From: a virus
Taxonomy: Duplodnaviria > Heunggongvirae > Uroviricota > Caudoviricetes
IMG/VR virus record: IMGVR_UViG_2690316231_000010
Location: 1 to 12,628 of that record
Length of the DNA: 12,628 bases
Direction: 5' to 3' (one strand)
Position 1 is the first letter of the stretch, and each line of letters begins with the position of its first letter. This document shows positions 2,146 to 12,628 of the stretch, piece after piece. A model generated the notes under the pieces. It worked only from the letters and a program-made list of their open reading frames with translations, was not told the origin of the DNA and did no database searches. The position numbers and the translations under genes were made by a program.

Positions 2146-4223
<2,078 letters not shown>

Positions 4224-5179: not shown

Positions 5180-5253
5180 TTCCCTCTCCCCCAAATAAAA
5201 AGGCCTGCGATTACCAGCAGACCTGTTACAAGCTCAGTGATGTAGATGGTCAT
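5176..5253 (-). CDS. Possible 25-aa hydrophobic peptide (MTIYITELVTGLLVIAGLFIWGRGK)
   Basis: Short ORF not in the ORF track; its ATG overlaps the ren stop (ATGA) and its stop overlaps the next ATG (ATGA), giving a translationally coupled chain; one predicted TM helix. Confidence 0.35.
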   Translation of the reverse strand: MTIYITELVTGLLVIAGLFIWGRGK

Positions 5254-5540
5254 CTTTTAACTCCATATACCGCCAATACCCGTTTCATCGCGGCACTCTG
5301 GCGACACTCCTTAAAAATCAGGTTCGTGCTCATCTTTCCTTCCCGTTCTTCCTTGGTAGCAAACCGGTAATACACCGTTCGCCAGACCTTACCTTCGATA
5401 ACCAGAAGACCTGCCCGTGCCATTTTAGCCGCGGCCTGATTTATGCTGGTTACTGTTGCGCCTGTTAGCGCGGCAACGTCCGGCGCACAGAAGCTATTAT
5501 GCGTCCCCAGGTAATGAATAATTGCCTCTTTGCCCGTCAT
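5250..5540 (-). CDS. ren: Ren protein (lambda-type), 96 aa
   Basis: Sequence MTGKEAIIHYLGTHNSFCAPDVAALTG... matches lambda Ren as I recall it; ATGA overlap with the P stop; position after P. Confidence 0.85.
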   Translation of the reverse strand: MTGKEAIIHYLGTHNSFCAPDVAALTGATVTSINQAAAKMARAGLLVIEGKVWRTVYYRFATKEEREGKMSTNLIFKECRQSAAMKRVLAVYGVKR

Positions 5541-6238
5541 ACACTTGCTCCTTTCAGTCCGAACTTAGCTTTGATTTCTGCGATCTTCGCCAGAGCCTGT
5601 GCACGATTTAGAGGTCTACCGCCCATGACAGGAAGTTGTTTTACTGGTTCAGGGATCGCCTCACCACGGTTAATTCTCGCAGTCATATGGACAAGCTCAT
5701 CTGCGGCCTTACGGCGTAATTCCGCATCAGTAAGCGCATTGGCCCGCATGTTCTGATACAGGTTGGTAACCAGCCAGTAGTGCGCGTTTGATTTCCACGG
5801 ATAAGACTCCGCATCCAGATACAGGCCTCGCTTCCGGCAATACTCGTAAACCATATCAACCAGCTCGCTGACGTTTGGCAGTCCGGCGATAACGGATGCT
5901 TCTTCCCGGCACCATGCAACAAACTGCCCGGGTGATGGCAGAAATGGTCGATTCTGCCGACGGGCTACGCGCATTCCTGCGTTAACCTGTTCCATTGTGG
6001 TGATCCCGTTTTCCCGGAAAGCCAGAACCCACTGGCGGCGAATTTCGTTCAGTTCGTTCTGGTCACGGTTAGCCAGACTCGCCGGGAAAGTTGCCAGTAA
6101 CTGGCTGAACACACCATTGATGATCTGCGCTACCTGCTGTACCTGTGGCTTTTCGTCGTACTGTTCCGGCATATTGTTGGCGATCCGACGCATCTGCTCA
6201 CGGTCAAAGTTAACCATCTGTGCGGCGATGTTTTTCAT
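5537..6238 (-). CDS. P: Replication protein P (lambda-type DnaB loader), 233 aa
   Basis: 233-aa ORF MKNIAAQMVNFDREQMRRIANNMPEQYDEK... matches lambda P; overlaps the O stop as in lambda. Confidence 0.95.
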   Translation of the reverse strand: MKNIAAQMVNFDREQMRRIANNMPEQYDEKPQVQQVAQIINGVFSQLLATFPASLANRDQNELNEIRRQWVLAFRENGITTMEQVNAGMRVARRQNRPFLPSPGQFVAWCREEASVIAGLPNVSELVDMVYEYCRKRGLYLDAESYPWKSNAHYWLVTNLYQNMRANALTDAELRRKAADELVHMTARINRGEAIPEPVKQLPVMGGRPLNRAQALAKIAEIKAKFGLKGASV

Positions 6239-7134
6239 AGATCCACCCCGTAAATCCAGTCAGTGTTTGTCAGGTCGAGTTTTGGTTTTCCGGCTGTCAC
6301 GCCAGCCTGTTGCTTGTTACGGTTGATTTCGAGCTGGGTCCACTTGTCGCGGAGTTTGGCCGGACTCAGCACGTTACCGGACCAGAAGTTGTCCTGGCAG
6401 GCCCAGCGGAACAGTACACACATGTCGCGGTGGTTACGTCCATCACGTTCACGCATCAGACGGATATCGTTAGCCCACCCTGCAAAATTCGGTTTTCTGG
6501 CTGATGGCGCGATGGTCTTCACCATGTCAAACATCCACTCTGCGGCGGTCAGGTCTTCTGCTGTCCCCCACTTGCTGCCGCTCTGAATCGCAGCATCTGG
6601 TTTAACCACAGAAAGATCGTTTTCTGGCTGGTCAGAGGATTCGCCAGAATTCTCGAACGAATAATCTTTTCTTTTTTCTTTTGTAATAGTGTCTTTTGTG
6701 TCCCCCTGTTTTGAGGGATAGCAATCCCCCAATTTGAGGGATGTTTTATCCCTCGTTTTAGGGGATTTTCCCTCGTTTTGAGGGATACACCATTCTGAGA
6801 TGTTTTTATTTGGTCCAAACATGCCGCCTTGCTGCTTGATAATATTCATTCTGACGAGTTCTAACTTGGCTTCATTGCACCGTTTGACAGGTAACTTTGT
6901 AATCTCGCTAAGTTGAGAATCGGTGATTCTGTCCATTGGTTTATTCCACCCATAGGTTTTACGCAGAATGGCAAGCAGCACTTTAAACTGTCGCTTGGTC
7001 AGATCTGCGCCTGAATAAGCCTCAAGCAGCATATTTGATAGTCTGGCGTAACCATCATCGAGATCTGCCACATTACGCTCCTGTCCGGCAAAGTTACCTC
7101 TGCCGAAGTTGAGTATTTTTGCTGTATTTGTCAT
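6235..7134 (-). CDS. O: Replication initiator O (lambda-type), 299 aa
   Basis: 299-aa ORF MTNTAKILNFGRGNFAGQERNVADLDDGYARLSNMLLEAY... matches lambda O; the ori-lambda iterons lie inside it. Confidence 0.95.
   Translation of the reverse strand: MTNTAKILNFGRGNFAGQERNVADLDDGYARLSNMLLEAYSGADLTKRQFKVLLAILRKTYGWNKPMDRITDSQLSEITKLPVKRCNEAKLELVRMNIIKQQGGMFGPNKNISEWCIPQNEGKSPKTRDKTSLKLGDCYPSKQGDTKDTITKEKRKDYSFENSGESSDQPENDLSVVKPDAAIQSGSKWGTAEDLTAAEWMFDMVKTIAPSARKPNFAGWANDIRLMRERDGRNHRDMCVLFRWACQDNFWSGNVLSPAKLRDKWTQLEINRNKQQAGVTAGKPKLDLTNTDWIYGVDL
6701..6788. repeat. ori-lambda iterons: four ~19-bp O-binding repeats inside the O gene, with an adjacent AT-rich unwinding region (about 6655-6700)
   Basis: Four tandem copies of the motif tcccc/tccctc-N-ttttgaggga (tccccctgttttgagggata, atcccccaatttgagggatg, tatccctcgttttaggggatt, ttccctcgttttgagggatac), followed on the O-sense side by cttttcttttttcttttg. 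Confidence 0.85.
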
Positions 7135-7144
7135 AATGACTCCT

Positions 7145-7224
7145 GTTGATAGATCCAGTAATGACCTCAGAATTCCATCTGGATTTGATTAGAACGCTCG
7201 GTCTTGCACACCGGGCGTTTTTTA
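7145..7224 (+). ncRNA. oop: oop antisense RNA (antisense to the cII 3' end) with its intrinsic terminator
   Basis: Sequence gttgatagatccagtaatgacctcagaa...gaacgctcggtcttgcacaccgggcgttttttatt closely matches lambda oop as I recall it; terminator stem cgctcggt/accgggcg followed by a T-run; lies antisense to the 3' end of cII. Confidence 0.6.
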
Positions 7225-7466
7225 TTGGTGATTTCATCAAGCGCATACTTAAAAGCTCTGCTAATCGGACTGATGTCTGATGCCATGCCAAAAGCACACA
7301 AGACCGAAGCTATAAACCTCCAGTCTGTTCTGCTTATCTTCGATTCATGACAGCCAATCATCTTTGCCAGACCGCGCTGAGTAAGCGTTGACAGGTTGAT
7401 AAGTAAATCTGTTTCTGCGCGATCAACGTCGCGCTGTGATAGTTTGCTGTAATTTGTTTGTTCCAT
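7167..7466 (-). CDS. cII: cII-like transcriptional activator, 99 aa (non-lambda N-terminus, lambda-like C-terminus ...NKKRPxxxTERSxQIQMEF)
   Basis: Position between cro/nutR and O; C-terminal residues match lambda cII; HTH-like GLAKMIGCHESKISR. Confidence 0.8.
   Translation of the reverse strand: MEQTNYSKLSQRDVDRAETDLLINLSTLTQRGLAKMIGCHESKISRTDWRFIASVLCAFGMASDISPISRAFKYALDEITNKKRPVCKTERSNQIQMEF
7444..7457 (+). promoter_or_regulatory. pRE-like cII activator box (TTGC-N6-TTGT) overlapping the cII start region
   Basis: tttgctgtaatttgtttg contains TTGC-tgtaat-TTGT, close to the lambda cII recognition motif TTGC-N6-TTGC, placed as in lambda pRE (over the cII 5' end, oriented toward cI). Confidence 0.4.
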
Positions 7467-7551
7467 TTCTTAAGATTTCCAATAGTGAATAGTTAGTTGA
7501 AAGGTATGCGTGGAAACGCATATGGCCTTAGTTGGTCAGATATCTTGGGGC

Positions 7552-7600
7552 TCGCTTTTCAGCGACGTAGGACGAATGTCCGTTGTTACAAAGAGCGGCT
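7552..7600 (-). promoter_or_regulatory. nutR-like site: boxA (cgctcttt) plus boxB hairpin (tcgctgaaaagcga) downstream of cro
   Basis: On the minus strand: gccgCTCTTTgtaacaacgg...ctacgtCGCTgaaaaGCGa. The boxB stem-loop with GAAAA loop is shaped like lambda boxB and the same arrangement recurs upstream of N (nutL). A palindrome ccgcttattaagcgg spans the cro stop and a hairpin atgcgtggaaacgcat (7506-7521) follows, in the position of tR1. Confidence 0.5.
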
Positions 7601-7607
7601 CCGCTTA

Positions 7608-7823
7608 TTAAGCGGCTTTGTGCTCCGGCGGGAACACGTCATCAAGACTTACTTTTGCGCCTAACTTGTTTAGACACGCAACAAGAGCACGGCATGTTTT
7701 AAGGTCTGGGAAGCGACGACCAGATTCCCAATGTCCGATAGCTCCCTGTGTGCATCCAACTGCCTTAGCAAGTGTTGTTTGAGAGATATTCAGTGACTCT
7801 CGATATTTTCGTAGGTTGCTCAT
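7608..7823 (-). CDS. cro: Cro-like repressor, 71 aa (non-lambda specificity)
   Basis: Start MSNLRKYRESLNISQTTLAKAVGCTQGAIGHWESGRR with SD ggaggg; HTH; divergent from cI across the operator region. The ORF-track 128-aa version is an upstream extension. Confidence 0.8.
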   Translation of the reverse strand: MSNLRKYRESLNISQTTLAKAVGCTQGAIGHWESGRRFPDLKTCRALVACLNKLGAKVSLDDVFPPEHKAA

Positions 7824-7934
7824 ATGCCCTCCATAGTAACCATGAAGAAAAAAATACAATATGTACTTTTTTAATGCAAGCAAAAATACACATTGTGCAT
7901 GGATGGTTGCAATACAGAGCGTAATAATAAGGAC
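7824..7934. promoter_or_regulatory. OR operator / divergent pR-pRM region with repeated ATACA-N4-GT(A/G)C sites
   Basis: Related 13-bp sites atacaatatgtac (7854-7866), atacacattgtgc (7886-7898) and weaker atacagagcgtaa (7912-7924); the same motif recurs in OL (9528-9540, 9586-9598). Exact -10/-35 assignments are not resolved. Confidence 0.55.
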
Positions 7935-8594
7935 ATGAAAATGAAATGGTATGAACTGGCTAGATCCAGAATGAAAGAGCTCGGCATAACTCAAGAGAAG
8001 TTAGCCGAAGAGCTAGGTATGACGCAGGGTGGAATTGGACACTGGTTGCGCGGATCTCGTCATCCATCTCTTAGTGATATTGGTGTGGTGTTTAAATACC
8101 TTGGTATTGATAACATATCATTCAACCACGACGGGACATTTTCACCTGTTGGCGAATACTCATCGGCCCCAGTTAAAAAACAATATGAGTACCCTGTTTT
8201 TTCTCATGTTCAGGCTGGGATGTTCTCTCCAGAACTCAGAACCTTTACCAAAGGCGATGCGGAGAGATTGGTAAGCACAACCAAAAAAGCCAGTGACTCT
8301 GCATTCTGGCTTGAGGTTGAAGGTAACTCAATGACCGCCCCAACAGGTTCCAAACCTAGTTTTCCTGACGGGATGTTAATTCTGGTTGACCCTGAGCAGG
8401 CTGTTGAGCCAGGTGATTTCTGCATAGCCAGACTTGGTGGTGATGAGTTTACCTTCAAGAAACTGATCAGGGATAGCGGTCAGGTGTTTCTACAGCCACT
8501 AAACCCGCAATATCCAATGATCCCATGCAATGAGAGTTGTTCCGTTGTGGGGAAAGTTATCGCTAGCCAGTGGCCAGAAGAGACGTTTGGGTAA
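7935..8594 (+). CDS. cI: cI repressor, chimeric: non-lambda N-terminal HTH domain fused to a lambda-type C-terminal domain
   Basis: Likely start MKMKWYEL... at 7935 with SD aagga (the ORF track starts at 7893). From about residue [21 protein letters not shown] (nt ~8184) to the C-terminus ...[12 protein letters not shown] it matches lambda cI as I recall it; the N-terminal [21 protein letters not shown] differs. Confidence 0.9.
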
Positions 8595-8766
8595 TTTCTC
8601 TGTTTGTTTTTTAAGCTATCAATCTCTGGCTTGTGGATAAGTTGGAAGGTATTCGCTGCTAATGTATTGACATTTACAAAATATAGGTATTTTGGGGTTG
8701 TCTAAAATTACCTATAGGGTAAACTTCACTTAAGCTCCTACATGAGAGCTTCTGAGGAGAGATAAA

Positions 8767-9063
8767 ATGAAAACCTTACGTTGCATGGCCTACCAGCAGA
8801 ACGGCGTTTACGTAGCTGCATGTTTAGACCTGTCATTGGCAGCGCAAGCAGATACTATGAAAGAAGCTGTAAACAAACTGGATGAGCAGATTAAAGATTT
8901 TTTCACTGAAGCGCTATCAGAGCCGGAATATGCAAAACAACTACTAAGTCGGAAAGCACCTTTATCTATGTGGCTTAAGTATTGGGTAATTGCATTTCAG
9001 GTTTTTGTCAGAAAACGAGGTGAAGCAAAACTCTTTGCTGAGCCTTGTGATGCTCATGCTTAG
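8767..9063 (+). CDS. HicB-like (DUF1902/UPF0150-type antitoxin fold) protein, 98 aa, in the rexA slot
   Basis: N-terminal motif NGVYVAACLDLSLAAQADTMKEAVNKLDEQI fits the GxYVAxxPDLPGxxxQGDTxEEAxxNxxEAI signature of HicB N-domains; strong SD gaggaga; hydrophobic C-terminal tail with no obvious RHH/HTH. Motif-based call, not a search. Confidence 0.5.
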   Translation: MKTLRCMAYQQNGVYVAACLDLSLAAQADTMKEAVNKLDEQIKDFFTEALSEPEYAKQLLSRKAPLSMWLKYWVIAFQVFVRKRGEAKLFAEPCDAHA

Positions 9064-9074
9064 GGTTACATTAC

Positions 9075-9359
9075 ATGTTCTTGAAAAAGCTTACTCCTTT
9101 GAAATACGACGAGGTAATCAGGGGACTTAAGAAAATGGGGTTTGAAATGAAACCTAAAACAGGAACCTCTCACGAACAGTGGGTTCTCAAGAACAGTAAA
9201 GGAAAATGGGTGGTTACAGTTGATAAGCATCACGCCCCATTCTCCAGAGATTTAATAAAATCCATGGCTAAGCAAGCTGGACTGAAAGCTCGTCACTTTC
9301 ATGCGTTATGCAGAGGTGACGCAACGCTTGAGGATATAGGATTCCAAATCATTAGCTAA
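9075..9359 (+). CDS. HicA/YcfA-like toxin-family protein, 94 aa, in the rexB slot
   Basis: Motif VIRGLKKMGFEMKPKTGTSHEQWVLKNSKGKWVVTVDKHHAPFSRDLIKSMAKQAGL fits the HicA signature (GF...GSH...vtv..H...l..i.kqaGL); begins 11 bp after the upstream ORF; followed by a strong terminator. Confidence 0.55.
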   Translation: MFLKKLTPLKYDEVIRGLKKMGFEMKPKTGTSHEQWVLKNSKGKWVVTVDKHHAPFSRDLIKSMAKQAGLKARHFHALCRGDATLEDIGFQIIS

Positions 9360-9389
9360 AACCCGGCCTCAGCGCCGGGTTTTCTTTGC
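9359..9389 (+). terminator. Rho-independent terminator after the two-gene cassette
   Basis: aaaacccggcctcagcgccgggttttctttg: 8-bp GC-rich stem (aacccggc/gccgggtt), 4-nt loop, T-run; also A-rich on the 5' side, so possibly bidirectional. Confidence 0.7.
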
Positions 9390-9572
9390 CTCACGCCCCC
9401 ACCTAAAGACACATAACCAAATGTATTTATTGAAAAATAAATAGATACAACTCACTAAACCACGCAATTCTGATCTCTCCTTACATCGCCGAGGCGATAC
9501 ACCCACGCTAAAAAACAACACTATTAAATACAAAGTGTTATAAAAAATCACTCCATTTTAGAACAAATCGTA

Positions 9573-9601
9573 TTGACCCAATAAAGTACATATCGTACTA
9601 T
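9573..9601 (+). promoter_or_regulatory. pL-like promoter (-35 TTGACC, 17-bp spacer, -10 TACTAT) with overlapping OL operator sites
   Basis: ttgacc (9573-9578), 17 bp, tactat (9596-9601), oriented toward N; operator-like sites atacaaagtgtta (9528-9540) and gtacatatcgtac (9586-9598) resemble the OR sites. Confidence 0.65.
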
Positions 9602-9646
9602 TTAACCGTCAGCAGGACGCTGGAAGCCAAACGGAACAGACTGGCA

Positions 9647-9693
9647 GGCTCTTTAAACAACGTCGAACTCTCGACTACGTGGCTGAAAAGCCA
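9647..9693 (+). promoter_or_regulatory. nutL-like site: boxA (gctcttta) plus boxB hairpin (tggctgaaaagcca)
   Basis: ggCTCTTTaaacaacg...ctacgtGGCTgaaaaGCCa parallels the nutR arrangement (shared aacaacg and ctacgt spacer motifs, GAAAA loop); lies between pL and N. Confidence 0.55.
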
Positions 9694-9791
9694 GATCACC
9701 CAACCACATGAGCTGTGGGATGCAATGCCGAAGCAACCGTCTCAGGAGGAGCTTCGAGATTGCATCGCCAAAGTTTATTCGGGAGGAATCT

Positions 9792-10114
9792 ATGTCCAGA
9801 AAAACAGAATTTAAAGGCACCGCAGCTTCTCGCCGTAGAGCTCGTCGCGCAAATCTGCAAAGTCAGAAGGCGATCAGCTCCGACAAGCTACACAGGCCAA
9901 CCCCTTCACGAGTGGTCTTGCAATGCAAGCGCAAACCAGCAATGAGAGCAGAAGTAATAACACTGACAACGCTGACCAGAAAATATGAAGGCTCAACTTG
10001 TCTTCCAAACGTAGCTCTTTACGCGGCAGGCTACCGGAAATCCAAACAACTGACAGCAAGATGACTTGTGTTGGTCGCCAGAAAATGAAATTAGGCAGCA
10101 AACCACTTATTTGA
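9792..10114 (+). pseudogene. N: N antiterminator homologue with an apparent -1 frameshift
   Basis: Start MSRKTEFKGTAASRRRARRANLQ (arginine-rich motif, SD gggagga) is in one frame and ends at the stop at 10062-10064; the conserved N C-terminus TCVGRQKMKLGSKPLI* (lambda ...TCSGRQKIKGKSIPLI) is in the +2 frame ending 10114. The span is 323 nt, one short of 324 (107 codons plus stop). Confidence 0.55.
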
Positions 10115-10122
10115 GGTGAGAT

Positions 10123-10209
10123 ATGGAAGAAGAATTTGAAGAGTTCGAAGATCATCCTCAGGATGTGATGGAACAATACCAGGACTATCCGTATGACTAC
10201 GACTATTGA
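10123..10209 (+). CDS. Possible 28-aa acidic peptide (MEEEFEEFEDHPQDVMEQYQDYPYDYDY)
   Basis: Strong SD gaggtga 4 nt upstream of the ATG, 8 nt after the N stop; overlaps the ral remnant start; could be a chance ORF. Confidence 0.25.
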   Translation: MEEEFEEFEDHPQDVMEQYQDYPYDYDY

Positions 10210-10290
10210 TAAGAATCAATGGTGTAGACAATACGAACGACGACAATGATTGCCAGAGAACTTGGTAAACAGAACTACAAGGCTGCCTGA
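10193..10290 (+). pseudogene. ral: ral remnant: N-terminal MTTTIDKNQWC and C-terminal ...IRTTTMIARELGKQNYKAA joined out of frame (internal ~100-bp deletion)
   Basis: Both ends resemble lambda Ral (66 aa) as I recall it, but only 98 bp remain and the halves are in different frames, with a stop at 10247-10249. Confidence 0.5.
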
Positions 10291-10294
10291 TGGT

Positions 10295-10319
10295 GGCCTT
10301 TATTTTTGTCCGTAAATAA
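10295..10319 (+). repeat. Direct repeat copy 1 (ggcctttatttttg-N4-taaataa), 5' of the 149-aa gene
   Basis: ggcctttatttttgtccgtaaataa, matched by copy 2 at 10816-10839 (ggcctttatttttggcataaataa); includes a terminator-like T-run and a possible -35 (ttgtcc) for the downstream gene. Confidence 0.6.
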
Positions 10320-10348: not shown

Positions 10349-10798
10349 ATGGAAGAACAAGCAAACAAGATTCTCGTAGAACTACTGCAAAAAGCCAGTA
10401 ATGGAATAGACGCGGCTGTTTCATTTAGCCAGGCACAGATTCCTGATGTTGTTCATCAGTTGCTGCTATGGAATATGGTTGACAGTCTGATTAAAACATT
10501 AGTGGCCATTCTAACAATCCCACTGGTTTTCTGGTTTATGAAGAAGCAGTGCCAAAGAGTTGAGACAGGTAAAATCGGTGATGAAGGATATTCATGGGAG
10601 AAAGGAAATCCCAAATACAGGCCGACAATGGTTTGGGATAGCAAAGGTGATATTAATCTTCTTATCATGCCATTGGTTGGAGTTTTGACTCTGTGGGGGA
10701 TTTTTATTATTGGTGTAGTAACCAATATGACTTGGTTAAAAATTTGGCTGGCCCCAAAGCTTTACCTTATCGAATATGCAGCATCATTGGTTAGGTAA
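10349..10798 (+). CDS. Hypothetical membrane protein, 149 aa, two predicted TM helices; moron-like insertion between ral and ea10
   Basis: SD aaggtga; hydrophobic segments LIKTLVAILTIPLVFWFM and INLLIMPLVGVLTLWGIFIIGVV; flanked by direct repeats and followed by its own terminator; lambda has no gene in this ral-ea10 interval. Confidence 0.6.
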   Translation: MEEQANKILVELLQKASNGIDAAVSFSQAQIPDVVHQLLLWNMVDSLIKTLVAILTIPLVFWFMKKQCQRVETGKIGDEGYSWEKGNPKYRPTMVWDSKGDINLLIMPLVGVLTLWGIFIIGVVTNMTWLKIWLAPKLYLIEYAASLVR

Positions 10799-10802
10799 TT
10801 TC

Positions 10803-10828
10803 AGGCCGCATAGTCGGCCTTTATTTTT
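10803..10828 (+). terminator. Rho-independent terminator after the 149-aa gene (overlaps direct repeat copy 2 at 10816-10839)
   Basis: aggccgcatagtcggcctttattttt: 6-bp stem (aggccg/cggcct), 6-nt loop, T-run. Confidence 0.65.
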
Positions 10829-10947
10829 GGCATAAATAACAGAATAAACACTGCACTGTGTATTCATTCCAACGAGTGAATACACGGAGCAATGTCGCTC
10901 GTAACTAAACAGGAGCCGACTTGTTCTGATTATTGGAAATCTTCTTT

Positions 10948-10976
10948 GCCCTCCAGTGTGAGGGCGATTTTTTATC
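10948..10976 (+). terminator. Rho-independent terminator upstream of ea10 (possibly tL1-equivalent)
   Basis: gccctccagtgtgagggcgattttttatc: stem gccctc/gagggc, loop cagtgt, T-run. Confidence 0.55.
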
Positions 10977-10993
10977 TGTGAGGATATGAACAG

Positions 10994-11362
10994 ATGCCAA
11001 ACATCAAAAAATACATCATTGATTACGACTGGAAAGCATCAATAGAAATTGAAATCGACCATGACGTAATGACAGAGGAAAAACTTCACCAGATTAATAA
11101 TTTCTGGTCAGACTCTGAATACCGACTCAATAAACACGGCTCTTTATTAAATGCTGTATTAATCATGCTGGCGCAACATGCTCTGCTTATAGCAATTTCG
11201 AAAGACTTAAATGCATATGGTGTTGTTTGTGAGTTCGACTGGGATGATGGAAATGGTCAGGAAGGATGGCCTCCAATGGATGGTAGTGAAGGAATAAGAA
11301 TTACCGATATCGATACATCAGGAATATTTGATTCAGATGATATGACTATCAAGGCCGCCTGA
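10994..11362 (+). CDS. ea10: Ea10-like protein (lambda ea10 position), 122 aa
   Basis: 369-bp ORF exactly 72 bp upstream of cIII, matching the lambda ea10-cIII spacing and length as I recall them; acidic C-terminal half. Confidence 0.7.
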   Translation: MPNIKKYIIDYDWKASIEIEIDHDVMTEEKLHQINNFWSDSEYRLNKHGSLLNAVLIMLAQHALLIAISKDLNAYGVVCEFDWDDGNGQEGWPPMDGSEGIRITDIDTSGIFDSDDMTIKAA

Positions 11363-11434
11363 GTGCGGTTTTACCGCATACCAATAACGCTTCACTCGAG
11401 GCGTTTTTCGTTATGTATAAATAAGGAGCACACC

Positions 11435-11599
11435 ATGCAATATGCCATTGCAGGGTGGCCTGTTGCTGGCTGCCCTTCCGAATCTTTACTTGAACGAATC
11501 ACCCGTAAATTACGTGACGGATGGAAACGCCTTATCGATATACTTAATCAGCCAGGAGTCCCAAAGAATGGATCAAACACTTATGGCTATCCAGACTAA
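11435..11599 (+). CDS. cIII: cIII (lambda-type protease-inhibitor regulator), 54 aa
   Basis: [54 protein letters not shown] matches lambda cIII; SD aaggag. The ORF-track 78-aa version is an upstream extension. Confidence 0.9.
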   Translation: MQYAIAGWPVAGCPSESLLERITRKLRDGWKRLIDILNQPGVPKNGSNTYGYPD

Positions 11600-11711
11600 A
11601 TTCACTATCGCCACTTTTATTGGCGATGAAAAGATGTTTCGTGAAGCCGTCGACGCTTATAAAAAATGGATATTAATGCTGAAACTGAGATCAAGCAAAA
11701 GCATTCACTAA
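11568..11711 (+). CDS. kil: Kil (lambda-type host-killing protein), 47 aa
   Basis: [47 protein letters not shown]; overlaps the cIII 3' end and the gam 5' end as in lambda. Confidence 0.85.
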
Positions 11712-12082
11712 CCCCCTTTCCTGTTTTCCTAATCAGCCTGGCATTTCGCGGGCGATATTTTCACAGCTATTTCAGGAGTTCAGCCATGAACGCTTATTAC
11801 ATTCAGGATCGTCTTGAGGCTCAGAGCTGGGCGCGTCACTACCAGCAGCTCGCCCGTGAAGAGAAAGAGGCAGAACTGGCAGACGACATGGAAAAAAGCC
11901 TGCCCCAGCACCTGTTTGAATCGCTATGCATCGATCATTTGCAACGCCACGGGGCCAGCAAAAAAGCCATTACCCGTGCGTTTGATGACGATGTTGAGTT
12001 TCAGGAGCGCATGGCAGAACACATCCGGTACATGGTTGAAACCATTGCTCACCACCAGGTTGATATTGATTCAGAGGTATAA
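11666..12082 (+). CDS. gam: Gam (RecBCD inhibitor), 138-aa long form; the 98-aa short form starts at 11787
   Basis: [24 protein letters not shown]... and internal [22 protein letters not shown]... match lambda Gam; SD caggag before the internal start. Confidence 0.9.
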
Positions 12083-12087
12083 AACGG

Positions 12088-12628
12088 ATGAGTACAGCAC
12101 TAGCAACGCTGGCAGGGAAGCTGGCTGAACGTGTCGGCATGGATTCTGTCGACCCACAGGAACTGATCACCACTCTTCGCCAGACGGCATTTAAAGGTGA
12201 TGCCAGCGATGCGCAGTTCATCGCATTACTGATCGTTGCCAACCAGTACGGCCTTAATCCGTGGACGAAAGAAATTTACGCCTTTCCTGATAAGCAGAAT
12301 GGCATCGTTCCGGTGGTGGGCGTTGATGGCTGGTCCCGCATCATCAATGAAAACCAGCAGTTTGATGGCATGGACTTTGAGCAGGACAATGAATCCTGTA
12401 CATGCCGGATTTACCGCAAGGACCGTAATCATCCGATCTGCGTTACCGAGTGGATGGATGAATGCCGTCGCGAACCATTCAAAACCCGCGAAGGCAGAGA
12501 AATTACGGGGCCGTGGCAGTCGCATCCCAAACGGATGTTACGGCATAAAGCCATGATTCAGTGTGCCCGTCTGGCCTTCGGATTTGCTGGTATCTATGAC
12601 AAGGATGAAGCCGAGCGCATTGTCGAAA
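12088..12628 (+). CDS. bet: Bet (Red-beta single-strand annealing protein), 5' partial, runs off the window
   Basis: MSTALATLAGKLAERVGMDSVDPQELITTLRQTAFKGDASDAQFIALLIVANQYGLNPWTKEIYAF... matches lambda Bet; no stop before the window end. Confidence 0.9.
   Translation, partial: MSTALATLAGKLAERVGMDSVDPQELITTLRQTAFKGDASDAQFIALLIVANQYGLNPWTKEIYAFPDKQNGIVPVVGVDGWSRIINENQQFDGMDFEQDNESCTCRIYRKDRNHPICVTEWMDECRREPFKTREGREITGPWQSHPKRMLRHKAMIQCARLAFGFAGIYDKDEAERIVE

Follow-up and report, generated by a model that had tools for sequence, protein, structure and literature searches.

Organization of the early-control region

Positions 7167–10114 of the window (the whole 12,628-nucleotide stretch of DNA analysed) carry the following genes and control elements, given with strand:

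7167–7466, minus: cII (Pfam Phage_CII, E = 2.3e-33)
7444–7477, plus: inferred PRE; cII boxes TTGC (7444–7447)-N6-TTGT (7454–7457), -10 AAGATT (7472–7477)
7552–7597, minus: nutR; boxA CGCTCTTTG (7597–7589), spacer hairpin GGACATTCGTCC (7581–7570), boxB TCGCTGAAAAGCGA (7565–7552)
7608–7823, minus: cro, 71 aa, an all-helical HTH_3 protein and paralogue of the cI N-terminal domain
7851–7879, minus: candidate PR; -35 TTGCAT (7879–7874), 17-nt spacer, -10 TATTTT (7856–7851), by eye
7900–7928, plus: candidate PRM; -35 TGGATG (7900–7905), -10 AATAAT (7923–7928), by eye
7935–8183, plus: cI residues 1–83, non-lambda; N-terminal HTH domain and first part of the linker
8184–8594, plus: lambda-type cI hinge with Ala-Gly cleavage site, and Peptidase_S24 dimerisation/cooperativity domain
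8767–9359, plus: cargo in lambda's rexAB slot; a HicB-like/DUF1902 ORF (8767–9063, 98 aa, DUF1902 only at E = 0.01) and a HicA toxin gene (9075–9359, 94 aa, HicA_toxin E = 8.4e-11)
9360–9479, plus: lambda-like segment after the rexB slot, 90.8% identical to lambda 35826–35708
9573–9601, plus: PL; -35 TTGACC, 17-nt spacer, -10 TACTAT, from a consensus scan (9/12 positions)
9647–9693, plus: nutL; boxA GGCTCTTTA (9647–9655), spacer hairpin GTCGAACTCTCGAC (9662–9675), boxB TGGCTGAAAAGCCA (9680–9693)
9792–10064, plus: N antiterminator, 90 aa (Pfam N_peptide, E = 5.5e-32)
10061–10114, plus: out-of-frame relic of 17 codons (MTCVGRQKMKLGSKPLI) from the 3' end of a lambda-type N

A BLASTN comparison of the window with lambda 32000–42000 returned the following lambda-type blocks:

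5180–7231, 97.8%: ren, P, O and the last 62 nt of cII
8184–8590, 93.9%: cI hinge and C-terminal domain
9360–9479, 90.8%: segment directly after rexB
10098–10319: orf28/ral
10810–12628, 98.7%: ea10 to bet

The stretches 7232–8183 and 9480–10097 gave no match in this comparison. The first-pass annotation had described a mosaic immunity region in which lambda-type replication and recombination genes surround a cII N-terminus, cro, operators, cI DNA-binding domain, nut sites and N of another specificity; the blocks and the unmatched core between them confirm this observation and support its interpretation. The annotation had also placed a junction within cI near nt 8184, and lambda similarity begins exactly there, at the first base of a Y codon. 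Another joint lies in cII at 7231, where the lambda block ends: its first 78 codons are of the H-19B/933W/HK022/HK97 type and its last 21 are lambda-like, with amino acid identities of 87% to 933W, 83–84% to HK97 and HK022 and 39% to lambda. The non-lambda core is not a single module. Phages Dewey and phi458 share its cro-OR-cI but have other cII/nutR and N, while 933W and HK97 share its cII/nutR type but have other repressors.

The cI and Cro proteins

The N-terminal domain of cI (Pfam HTH_3, E = 1.9e-10; recognition helix TQGGIGHW) has no DNA similarity to lambda 32000–42000 by BLASTN and is about 20–23% identical to its lambda counterpart. It is 100% identical at the nucleotide level to that of a Stx1-converting phage and 2B8, and the Nil2 domain is 100% identical at the protein level. 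We favour a start at 7935 over the annotated 7899 because MKMKW N-termini are conserved in the g341c and Vibrio P2 homologues. From 8184 onward, cI departs from lambda at 27 of 411 nt. Of the 27 codons affected, 25 are synonymous sense codons, one is the stop codon (TAA here, TGA in lambda) and one puts L in place of W; 135 of the 136 residues from YEYPVF to the end are those of lambda. This part matches Pfam Peptidase_S24 (E = 1.1e-28), and cI matches the lambda repressor structure 3bdn in the PDB (E = 2.6e-96).

The cro product (Pfam HTH_3, E = 4.3e-12; PDB match 28tn_A, E = 4.8e-17) is an all-helical paralogue of cI, unlike the lambda Cro fold. It shares 22 identities over 62 aligned residues with the cI N-terminal domain, and its recognition helix, TQGAIGHW, is nearly that of cI. 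The gene is 100% identical at the nucleotide level to those of VT2-Sakai, the Stx1-converting phage and 2B8.

Operators and the recurring motif

Six putative operators, each readable as a 17-bp pseudo-palindrome with the half-site a-A-R-T-A-C-A-n, lie at the promoters:

OR1, 7852–7868, AAATACAATATGTACTT: over the PR -10 and spacer; identical to a 'putative operator' of AP005153 and to VT2-SA OR1 (PMC10742460 Table S1)
OR2, 7884–7900, AAATACACATTGTGCAT: abuts the PRM -35; identical to AP005153/VT2-SA OR2
OR3, 7910–7926, CAATACAGAGCGTAATA: overlaps the PRM spacer and -10; one mismatch to annotated AP005153/VT2-SA OR3
OL3, 9526–9542, AAATACAAAGTGTTATA: two mismatches to annotated AP005153/VT2-SA OL3
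OL2, 9559–9575, TAGAACAAATCGTATTG: overlaps the PL -35; one mismatch to annotated AP005153/VT2-SA OL2
OL1, 9584–9600, AAGTACATATCGTACTA: over the PL spacer and -10; identical to annotated AP005153/VT2-SA OL1

Every one of the 12 half-sites has A at position 5 and C at position 6 (A5 and C6). OR1, which is located inside an 11-nt inverted repeat, has the top matrix score of all sites. Upstream of the cI ATG at 7935, OR2 is centred at a distance of 43 bp and OR3 at 17 bp (42 and 19 bp in lambda). The first-pass annotation had listed four candidate operators sharing ATACA-N4-GT(A/G)C. All four proved to be cores of the 17-bp units, but the list missed OR3 and OL2, and the motif is exact only at 7854–7866 and 7886–7898; the site at 9586–9598 (GTACATATCGTAC) has one mismatch to it and that at 9528–9540 (ATACAAAGTGTTA), read directly off the sequence, has two. 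The proposal that the motif marks operators of non-lambda specificity is supported.

The literal motif occurs twice in the window against 0.13 expected, a count reached in 2 of 200 shuffles; with one mismatch allowed there are 8 matches against 4.3 expected, which is not significant. A looser core, ACA-N3-YGT, falls at six positions in the 222 bp of both control regions and at five in the other 12.4 kb (Poisson P ∼7e-10, in a post hoc test). Scored with a symmetric half-site matrix, the six operators rank above every other site in the window, although the matrix derives from these very sequences; in shuffled sequence, 0.09 sites score as high as the sixth or higher. Across six related loci, variable columns number 6 of 51 in the OL operators and 43 of 85 in their flanks (Fisher P = 3e-6). 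At OR the difference is not significant (7 of 51 and 15 of 86, P = 0.64); the flanks there include promoter elements and coding sequence. Substitutions inside the operators of relatives mostly affect the central bases. TACA-N3-YGTA sites also occur between cro and cI in Salmonella g341c, where they are annotated as repressor-binding sites, in Vibrio P2 and in Klebsiella ST340-VIM1phi10.1, whose cI N-terminal domains are only 36–49% identical to this one; none was found in the cro-cI intergenic region of P13374, which has a lambda-type N-terminal domain.

The literature searched yielded no binding experiments with the cognate repressor or Cro on these sites; its sole binding data are for lambda CI on the VT2-SA operators, with an apparent Kd of 3.7–6.4 µM (0.2–3 µM on its own sites).

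Promoters and a lambda-like switch

PR lines up position by position with PL (TTGACC-17-TACTAT), and AP005153 has PR annotated at the equivalent place and a 'putative maintenance promoter for CI' at that of PRM. Both PR and PRM are weak matches that the consensus promoter scan missed. A PRM transcript would begin at or near the ATG at 7935, leaderless as in lambda. PRE overlaps the cII start codon, lies at the same distance from it as lambda PRE and by eye resembles the TTGC-N6-TTGC of that promoter.

The region as a whole most likely operates like the lambda switch, with DNA binding, activation and cleavage projected from lambda onto the identities, positions and conservation observed here. 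Dimers of cI would occupy the six operators and repress PL and PR, where OR1 and OL1 cover the -10 and spacer and OL2 overlaps the PL -35. Since OR2 abuts the PRM -35 at a lambda-like distance from the cI start, a dimer there should activate the weak PRM, and OR3 should shut PRM off. For the lytic choice, Cro, with its nearly identical recognition helix, should bind the cI sites. Dimerisation, pairwise cooperativity, OL–OR looping and RecA-stimulated self-cleavage should come from the lambda-identical C-terminal domain of cI. However, OR1–OR2 and OL2–OL3 are 32 and 33 bp apart (24 and 20 in lambda), so lambda-style OR1–OR2 cooperativity is not guaranteed; OR2–OR3 and OL1–OL2 are 26 and 25 bp apart (23 and 24 in lambda).

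A cII of the 933W/HK022 type would act at PRE, and N would act on nutL and nutR through boxA, spacer hairpin and a boxB with a GAAAA loop. The nutR site has the three-part layout of the annotated 933W nutR, with an identical spacer hairpin, and two hairpins have been reported for H-19B nutR (PMC3526286). The nutL layout is that of nutR, with both stems altered compensatorily (RNA fold z = -2.8).

Comparison with known immunity systems

These features identify 7167–10114, very probably, as the early-control region of a lambda-like E. coli prophage with VT2-Sakai-type immunity, or cI2c / cro4 / N2 in the Stx-phage typing scheme. This immunity type is already known from Shiga-toxin phages such as VT2-Sakai, and the region is therefore ordinary rather than new. 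Its cro-OR-cI is 98–99.7% identical to those of VT2-Sakai, the Stx1-converting phage of record AP005153, Stx2 II, Nil2, 1717, 2851, YYZ-2008 and 2B8; the cro-OR-cI N-terminal segment is found over at least 80% of its length in 63 phage records, and the whole region is present at 99.7–99.9% identity in 17 complete E. coli genomes. The six operators carry the annotation 'putative operator' in GenBank AP005153, and all six coincide with the VT2-SA OR1–3/OL1–3 oligonucleotides printed in PMC10742460 Table S1. The C-terminus shared by lambda CI and the "cI2c" type has likewise been pointed out (PMC3430580).

Between the window and VT2-Sakai-type phages, including AP005153 and 2B8, nucleotide identity is 99–100% for cro and the cI N-terminal domain and 97.6–99.8% for the cI C-terminal domain. 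There is no difference in OR1, OR2 or OL1 and one of one or two bases in each of OR3, OL2 and OL3, and the phages share the window's cII type, nutR, nutL and N. The OR1–OR2 spacer, which holds the PR -35, differs from theirs at five positions. The Stx phages have a HK022-type O and a DnaB-like P, whereas the window has lambda O/P, as does 2B8, which matches at 98.8% over 5667–8595. Lambda itself shares the gene order and the promoter/operator layout, with three sites each at OR and OL. The window is also lambda-type in ren, P, O, cIII, kil, gam and bet and in the terminator block that follows the rex slot. Lambda differs in N, the nut sites, most of cII and the operators (AATACA-type here, TATCACCGC-type in lambda); in the window rexAB is replaced and sieB is absent.

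Outside this group, the C1 repressor of the P22-like Salmonella phage g341c has the same domain pairing (54% identity in the N-terminal and 80% in the lambda-type C-terminal domain), and its annotated sites ATACACATCGTAT and ATACAAATTGTAT have a core in common with the window operators, but only two are annotated and its recognition helix is TKGAVSHW. Phage 933W has the same cII type and nutR architecture and related N termini, but its cI and Cro are unrelated in sequence and its operators are CGTACTGAAAGTACG-like 15-mers, two only at OL; its repressor reportedly binds without cooperativity (PMC3317979). The recognition helix of HK620 cI, TQGAVGHY, resembles the one here, and the 17-bp operators annotated in that phage have AATAC half-sites (AATAC-N7-GTATT), but the remainder of its N-terminal domain is lambda-type, its C-terminal domain belongs to a different type (39% identity) and half-site position 7 is T or C where the window has A.

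Alternative readings

The first-pass annotation had seen in cI a foreign HTH domain fused to the lambda C-terminal domain. The join is real, but it is not peculiar to this prophage: the whole cI is of one known phage type, that of VT2-Sa/Nil2/1717/2851/2B8, and its C-terminal domain is nearer to these phages (2 nt from 2B8, 10 from the Stx1-converting phage) than to lambda (27 nt). An origin of the hybrid in this prophage, in which a lambda-type prophage and a heteroimmune phage recently crossed over in the linker to give a new repressor combination, would fit the 97.8–98.7% lambda identity of the O/P and recombination-gene flanks and the abrupt onset of cI similarity at 8184. It is essentially refuted by the presence of the same full-length cI in dozens of phage records and the 17 E. 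coli genomes, and by the nucleotide distances, which are nearly all synonymous and thus point to old divergence under selection rather than recent exchange with a lambda-like neighbour; the g341c pairing also argues against it. Domain types assort freely among related repressors. The nearest relative of this N-terminal domain, g341c, has a lambda-type C-terminal domain at 80% identity, and the nearest relative of lambda's, P13374, has one at merely 64–65%; lambda could therefore equally be the recipient, and the chimeric make-up stands while its direction is not given by the data.

It is similarly very improbable that the ATACA...GTAC words reflect chance or promoter-related AT-rich similarity, with the true operators elsewhere or of other sequence. 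In favour of that reading, the regions are rich in A and T, only two of the four proposed sites fit the literal motif, the one-mismatch search is not significant and the matrix test is circular. Against this stand the concentration of core sites in the control regions, the like layout of PR and PL (-35, 17 nt with O1, -10), the invariant A5C6 with arms conserved and centres varying among relatives, the recurrence of the core in g341c, Vibrio P2 and the Klebsiella phage, and the operators of HK620. A tentative but appreciable possibility is that this copy is a truncated remnant without a lysis–lysogeny switch, whose cI only silences PL and PR and gives superinfection immunity beside the HicA cargo. 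An IS21/IS100 element (2270–4223, with 28-nt terminal inverted repeats) abuts the nin region and joins the prophage to unrelated island DNA at 66–2269, which is known from other places in E. coli and carries genes of the YagK/YfjJ, inovirus-type Gp2 and zinc-ribbon kinds. Q and the genes for lysis and morphogenesis are thus not at their lambda-map place, and the copy may be defective, acting only as an immunity module. However, the window stops at 12628 with the remaining prophage outside view, all early genes within it are intact, and O55:H7 and other genomes have this region without the IS. This reading bears on the state of the copy and not on the identity of the region as VT2-Sakai-type.

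Cargo genes and the N relic

The HicB-like/HicA pair is the sole uncatalogued element of the region; between cI and OL, Stx phages carry a 522-nt orf and 2B8 a NYN-domain gene instead. An AF2 model of the HicB-like ORF (pLDDT 72) has the HicB N-terminal domain 6g1c as its best fold match (Foldseek probability 0.97–0.99, E 0.04–0.08), and the gene pair is kept in distant homologues. Upstream of the ORF lies an inverted repeat (8682–8716), and a hairpin and T-run at ∼9361–9390, read off the sequence, are positioned to terminate the cI operon.

The N protein is of the 'N2' type (name from PMC3430580) of VT2-Sa, 1717 and YYZ-2008, with the arginine-rich motif SRRRARRA; its gene is 96–100% identical in nucleotides to those of VT2-Sakai-type phages and 2B8, versus only about 40% amino acid identity to the N proteins of 933W and HK97. 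The relic at 10061–10114 marks an old recombination joint. By translation, its in-frame equivalent ends the lambda-type N of phage Dewey, to which the DNA at 10064–10125 is 100% identical.

Layout of the early region

The window holds a lambda-like prophage's early region, oriented opposite to the lambda map, with ninB, ren, P, O, cII and cro on the minus strand and cI, N, ea10, cIII, kil, gam and bet on the plus strand. BLASTN of the window against lambda 32000-42000 returned five lambda-type blocks, and no DNA similarity to that part of lambda was found at 7232-8183 or 9480-10097.

Lambda-type blocks in the window
5180-7231, 97.8% identical; ren, P, O and the last 62 nt of cII
8184-8590, 93.9% identical; equivalent to lambda 37637-37231, within cI
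9360-9479, 90.8% identical; the segment directly after rexB
10098-10319; orf28/ral
10810-12628, 98.7% identical

This pattern of five blocks with non-lambda gaps shows that the first-pass annotation, which had described a mosaic immunity region with a junction inside cI near nt 8184, was exact on both points, and its observation and interpretation were essentially right overall. The non-lambda core can be divided into three or more exchangeable pieces. In phages Dewey and phi458, the same cro-OR-cI segment (93%) and the same OL (81%) occur together with another cII/nutR, and in Dewey an N gene of lambda type stands beside cro-OR-cI of the window's type.

The lambda-like 3' end of cII (7167-7231) is about 89-91% identical to lambda, 2B8 and phi458, against ~98% in the adjoining O/P genes, and encodes PVCKTERSNQ in place of the PAATERSEQ of lambda and 2B8; this diverged patch is small and adjoins a mosaic joint. 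The window lacks lambda's sieB region (about 34382-35036) between N and orf28. The ral region carries an inserted 149-aa ORF (10349-10798), which matches nothing in Pfam, NCBIfam or PADLOC and is flanked by overlapping matches to lambda 34059-34148, such that a short lambda segment is duplicated (10229-10319 and from 10810). An Rfam scan of the window detected nothing besides the cIII thermoregulator Lambda_thermo (RF01804; 11422-11480, 88.5 bits), which is expected for a lambda-type cIII leader, and no tRNAs were found in the window.

Domain structure of the cI repressor

The cI protein combines the two domains of the LexA/CI family, an N-terminal HTH_3 domain (Pfam, residues 11-58, E=1.9e-10) and a C-terminal Peptidase_S24 domain (residues 87-209, E=1.1e-28), and matches the lambda repressor 3bdn with E=2.6e-96. 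From YEYPVF (8184) to the end, 135 of its 136 residues are identical to lambda cI, and the QAG site, the GNSM serine and the FKKL lysine are therefore all present. Over the same stretch, stop codon included, the gene departs from lambda at 27 of 411 nt; 25 of the 27 differing codons are synonymous, one is the stop (TAA for TGA) and one accounts for the single residue change, a Leu where lambda has Trp in ERWV. Upstream of 8184 there is no DNA resemblance to lambda and protein identity is about 20-23%. The junction lies ~10 residues before the Ala-Gly self-cleavage site and hence in the hinge, which places the cleavage site, the catalytic Ser/Lys and the dimerisation/cooperativity surface all in the lambda-type part. 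From the identity with the lambda C-terminal domain, we infer that cI would undergo RecA-stimulated self-cleavage and bind operators. The protein is a clean textbook case of domain-level mosaicism.

The cI start is best placed at ATG 7935 (MKMKWYEL). Homologues begin with MKMNW (Salmonella phage g341c), MKMKW (Vibrio P2) and MKQRW (Klebsiella phage ST340-VIM1phi10.1), and the start at 7899 assigned by GenBank and PGAP would bring the operator OR3 inside the gene.

Assignment to the VT2-Sakai immunity type

On nucleotide identity, the region is assigned to a known, annotated and widespread immunity type, that of VT2-Sakai (cI2c/cro4), which it matches at 100% in cro, 99.2-100% in the cI N-terminal domain and 97.6% in the cI C-terminal domain. 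The segment from cro through OR to the cI N-terminal domain is 98-99.7% identical in 2B8, an Stx1-converting phage (AP005153), Stx2 II, VT2-Sakai, 2851, 1717, YYZ-2008 and the PA series, and 63 phage records span at least 80% of it; Nil2 has the same cI N-terminal domain at the protein level. Among complete E. coli genomes, 17, one of them O55:H7 CB9615, match the whole of 7400-10120 at 99.7-99.9% identity. The type was named cI2c/cro4/N2 by Smith et al. 2012 (PMC3430580), who described the lambda CI carboxy terminus as common with cI2c and the lambda amino terminus as unique, implying different DNA binding. Given that report and the annotated and printed operators, the chimeric relation, the operators and the immunity type are already published, and the region has little significance beyond correct annotation. 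The immunity group predicts which Stx or lambdoid phages the prophage excludes and which can recombine with it.

Among classical phages, a donor search by direct BLASTN and TBLASTN covered lambda, HK97, HK022, 933W and HK620, and a match to the cro-OR-cI N-terminal segment was absent from all five, including lambda, HK97 and HK022, where it had been proposed to look for the donor of the immunity module. The HK620 match comprised just 33 residues around the HTH, and phages 434 and P22 (c2) appeared in a PDB search as weak matches to the N-terminal domain (E=0.25 and 0.38). Immunity of the lambda type was rejected on the lack of DNA similarity at 7232-8183, the low identity of the N-terminal domain (about 20-23%) and operators that are not TATCACCGC-type. 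The 933W immunity, considered for its matching cII and nut types, was rejected on its unrelated repressor and operators. HK97 has in common with the window the lambda-type C-terminal domain (94.9% nt identity), a cII/nutR of the same type (89%) and the last 127 nt around the stop of N.

Operators and Cro

The GenBank entry AP005153 annotates six 17-bp 'putative operators', which were mapped to the window. Three of the six sites are identical to the annotated ones and three carry 1-2 substitutions, with order and positions kept. Table S1 of PMC10742460 lists the same six sequences under the names VT2-SA OR1-3 and OL1-3.

Operators mapped from AP005153
7852-7868, OR1
7884-7900, OR2
7910-7926, OR3
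9526-9542, OL3
9559-9575, OL2
9584-9600, OL1

The four sites that the first-pass annotation had proposed under the motif ATACA-N4-GT(A/G)C are the cores of OR1, OR2, OL3 and OL1; OR3 and OL2 had been overlooked, and the literal motif is exact at only two of the four (7854-7866 and 7886-7898; 0.13 expected). The site at 9586-9598 has one mismatch and that at 9528-9540, ATACAAAGTGTTA, has two, and a search for the literal motif with one mismatch allowed is uninformative (8 found against 4.3 expected). The 12 half-sites of the mapped operators give the consensus a-A-R-T-A-C-A-n, in which A5 and C6 are invariant, and therefore the symmetric form RTACA-N3-YGTAY. Its core, ACA-N3-YGT, occurs 6 times in the two control regions (222 bp together) against 5 times in the other 12.4 kb, a clustering for which a post hoc Poisson P is about 7e-10. 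Across six related loci, 6 of 51 columns are variable in the OL operators against 43 of 85 in their flanks (P = 3e-6), with operator changes mainly in central bases that are presumably uncontacted; the corresponding contrast at OR in six related loci was not significant.

Sites of the form TACA-N3-YGTA also lie between cro and cI in g341c, Vibrio P2 and Klebsiella ST340-VIM1phi10.1, whose cI N-terminal domains are only 36-49% identical to that of the window. Such sites in distant relatives lend independent support to the predicted operators. Those of g341c are annotated as repressor-binding sites, and P13374, which has a lambda-type N-terminal domain, has none between cro and cI. The cro product (7608-7823, HTH_3) and the cI N-terminal domain are paralogous, and their near-equal recognition helices, TQGAIGHW in Cro and TQGGIGHW in cI, would fit two proteins reading one set of sites. 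In PMC10742460, lambda CI was the only repressor tested on the VT2-SA operators (apparent Kd 3.7-6.4 uM), and no test of the cognate repressor on the six sites was found in the literature searched.

Predicted promoters, nut sites and switch

The whole working scheme for the switch is modelled on lambda. A consensus promoter scan detected PL and missed PR and PRM, which were picked by eye.

Candidate promoters and nut sites
9573-9601, PL, TTGACC-17-TACTAT (consensus promoter scan)
7879-7874 (TTGCAT), 17 nt, 7856-7851 (TATTTT), PR (by eye)
7900-7905 (TGGATG) and 7923-7928 (AATAAT), PRM, weak (by eye)
7597-7552, nutR; boxA, spacer hairpin and boxB with GAAAA loop
9647-9693, nutL; boxA, spacer hairpin and boxB with GAAAA loop

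In this arrangement, OL1 would cover the PL spacer and -10 element and OL2 would overlap the PL -35 element, while PR would match PL position for position with OR1 in the equivalent place. A transcript from PRM would begin at or near ATG 7935. The centres of OR2 and OR3 are 43 and 17 bp upstream of this ATG (42 and 19 bp in lambda), so these positions would suit activation of PRM from OR2 and its repression from OR3, and acidic residues aligned with lambda E34 and D38 are present in helix 2. The cII product is 87% identical to that of 933W, and a TTGC-N6-TTGT box overlaps the cII start, as at lambda PRE.

In the 111-bp OR intergenic region (7824-7934), identity to the Stx1-converting phage falls to 91.9%, from 100% at nucleotide level in cro and the cI N-terminal domain. 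The OR1-OR2 spacer, which contains the PR -35 element (TTGCAT in the window, TTGTAT in the Stx1-converting phage), accounts for five of the differences, and promoter strength may therefore vary among otherwise homoimmune phages.

Spacings differ from lambda: OR1-OR2 and OL2-OL3 are 24 and 20 bp there and 32 and 33 bp in the window, and OR and OL are 2.4 kb apart in lambda and 1.7 kb here. Despite the lambda-identical cooperativity module, the 32-bp and 33-bp spacings may alter which operators form cooperative pairs. The hinge and C-terminal domain of cI are nearly unchanged (99% protein identity) across the heteroimmune lambda, HK97 and VT2-Sakai type, so mixed oligomers with lambda-type repressors could form. 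We consider it improbable that, in polylysogens, mixed dimers or higher oligomers of this kind couple or destabilise heteroimmune switches, with the altered spacings also rewiring cooperative pairs.

N matches N_peptide (E=5.5e-32) and has an arginine-rich motif, and candidate nut sites lie downstream of both PL and PR, so that the predicted features of N/nut antitermination of the H-19B/933W/HK97 kind are present. Both stems differ compensatorily between nutL and nutR. The annotated nutR of 933W has the same three-part architecture, with a GACAAA boxB loop in place of GAAAA, and two hairpins have been described in the H-19B nutR (PMC3526286).

Direction of the domain exchange

We compared cI homologues in a domain-wise, unrooted identity matrix, in which each of two N-terminal domain types is found paired with each of two C-terminal types.

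Phages representing each combination of cI domain types
window and g341c
Vibrio P2 and Klebsiella phage
lambda and P13374
HK620

The C-terminal domain of lambda and the window is 80% identical to that of g341c, whose N-terminal domain is of the window's type, and 64-65% identical to that of P13374, whose N-terminal domain is of lambda's type. This unrooted matrix hints, without proving, that lambda rather than the window's lineage may be the recipient. The first-pass annotation had described a foreign HTH domain fused to a lambda domain; the pairing is real, and the direction had been assumed, with the matrix hinting otherwise. The cI C-terminal domain is 2-10 nt from 2B8 and the Stx phages against 27 nt from lambda, so cI came in whole. 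The HK620 cI has a lambda-like N-terminal arm and a recognition helix, TQGAVGHY, resembling that of the window, together with AATAC-type operators.

A HicB-like/HicA pair in the rexAB position

Two ORFs separate the cI stop from the lambda-like post-rexB block and lie exactly at the position of lambda's rexAB.

8767-9063, HicB-like/DUF1902 ORF, 98 aa
9075-9359, HicA toxin, 94 aa (PF07927, E=8.4e-11, above the curated cut-off)

The 98-aa ORF matches DUF1902 below the cut-off (E=0.01), and no DNA-binding domain was recognised in it. Its structural model (pLDDT 72) most resembles the HicB N-terminal domain, in weak matches (E 0.04-0.08, TM 0.47-0.62), and its distant homologues outside prophages in every case have a HicA-like gene after them. 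A TTGACA element (8667-8672) and a 12-nt inverted repeat, TATAGGTATTTT/AAATTACCTATA (8682-8716), lie upstream of the pair. Of 5,426 complete E. coli genomes, 20 carry the HicA cassette, which had no match among 50,697 phage records, in PADLOC or in NCBIfam. The rexAB position is known for exclusion functions expressed in lysogens. The pair could act in exclusion or addiction as a module expressed in lysogens, and a defence role has been proposed for HicA (PMC10865869). This rare pair in the rexAB slot is the sole loose end of some value.

Boundaries of the region

An out-of-frame relic of 17 codons, MTCVGRQKMKLGSKPLI-stop, overlaps the N stop codon (10061-10114). It corresponds to the C-terminus of lambda-type N, and the same DNA ends Dewey N in frame; the relic is a fossil recombination joint within an ancestral N gene. 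The end of the immunity region had been set at 10114, which is the stop of this relic, whereas N stops at 10064.

An IS21/IS100-family element (2270-4223) with 28-nt imperfect terminal inverted repeats adjoins the prophage nin region.

2356-3378, istA
3375-4157, istB

To the left of the element, positions 66-2269 hold E. coli island DNA with no relation to the prophage; it recurs at other places in other genomes, at up to 100% identity, and encodes a YagK/YfjJ or inovirus-type Gp2 protein and zinc-ribbon proteins. Since the element joins the nin region to this island DNA, the prophage copy may be truncated or rearranged.
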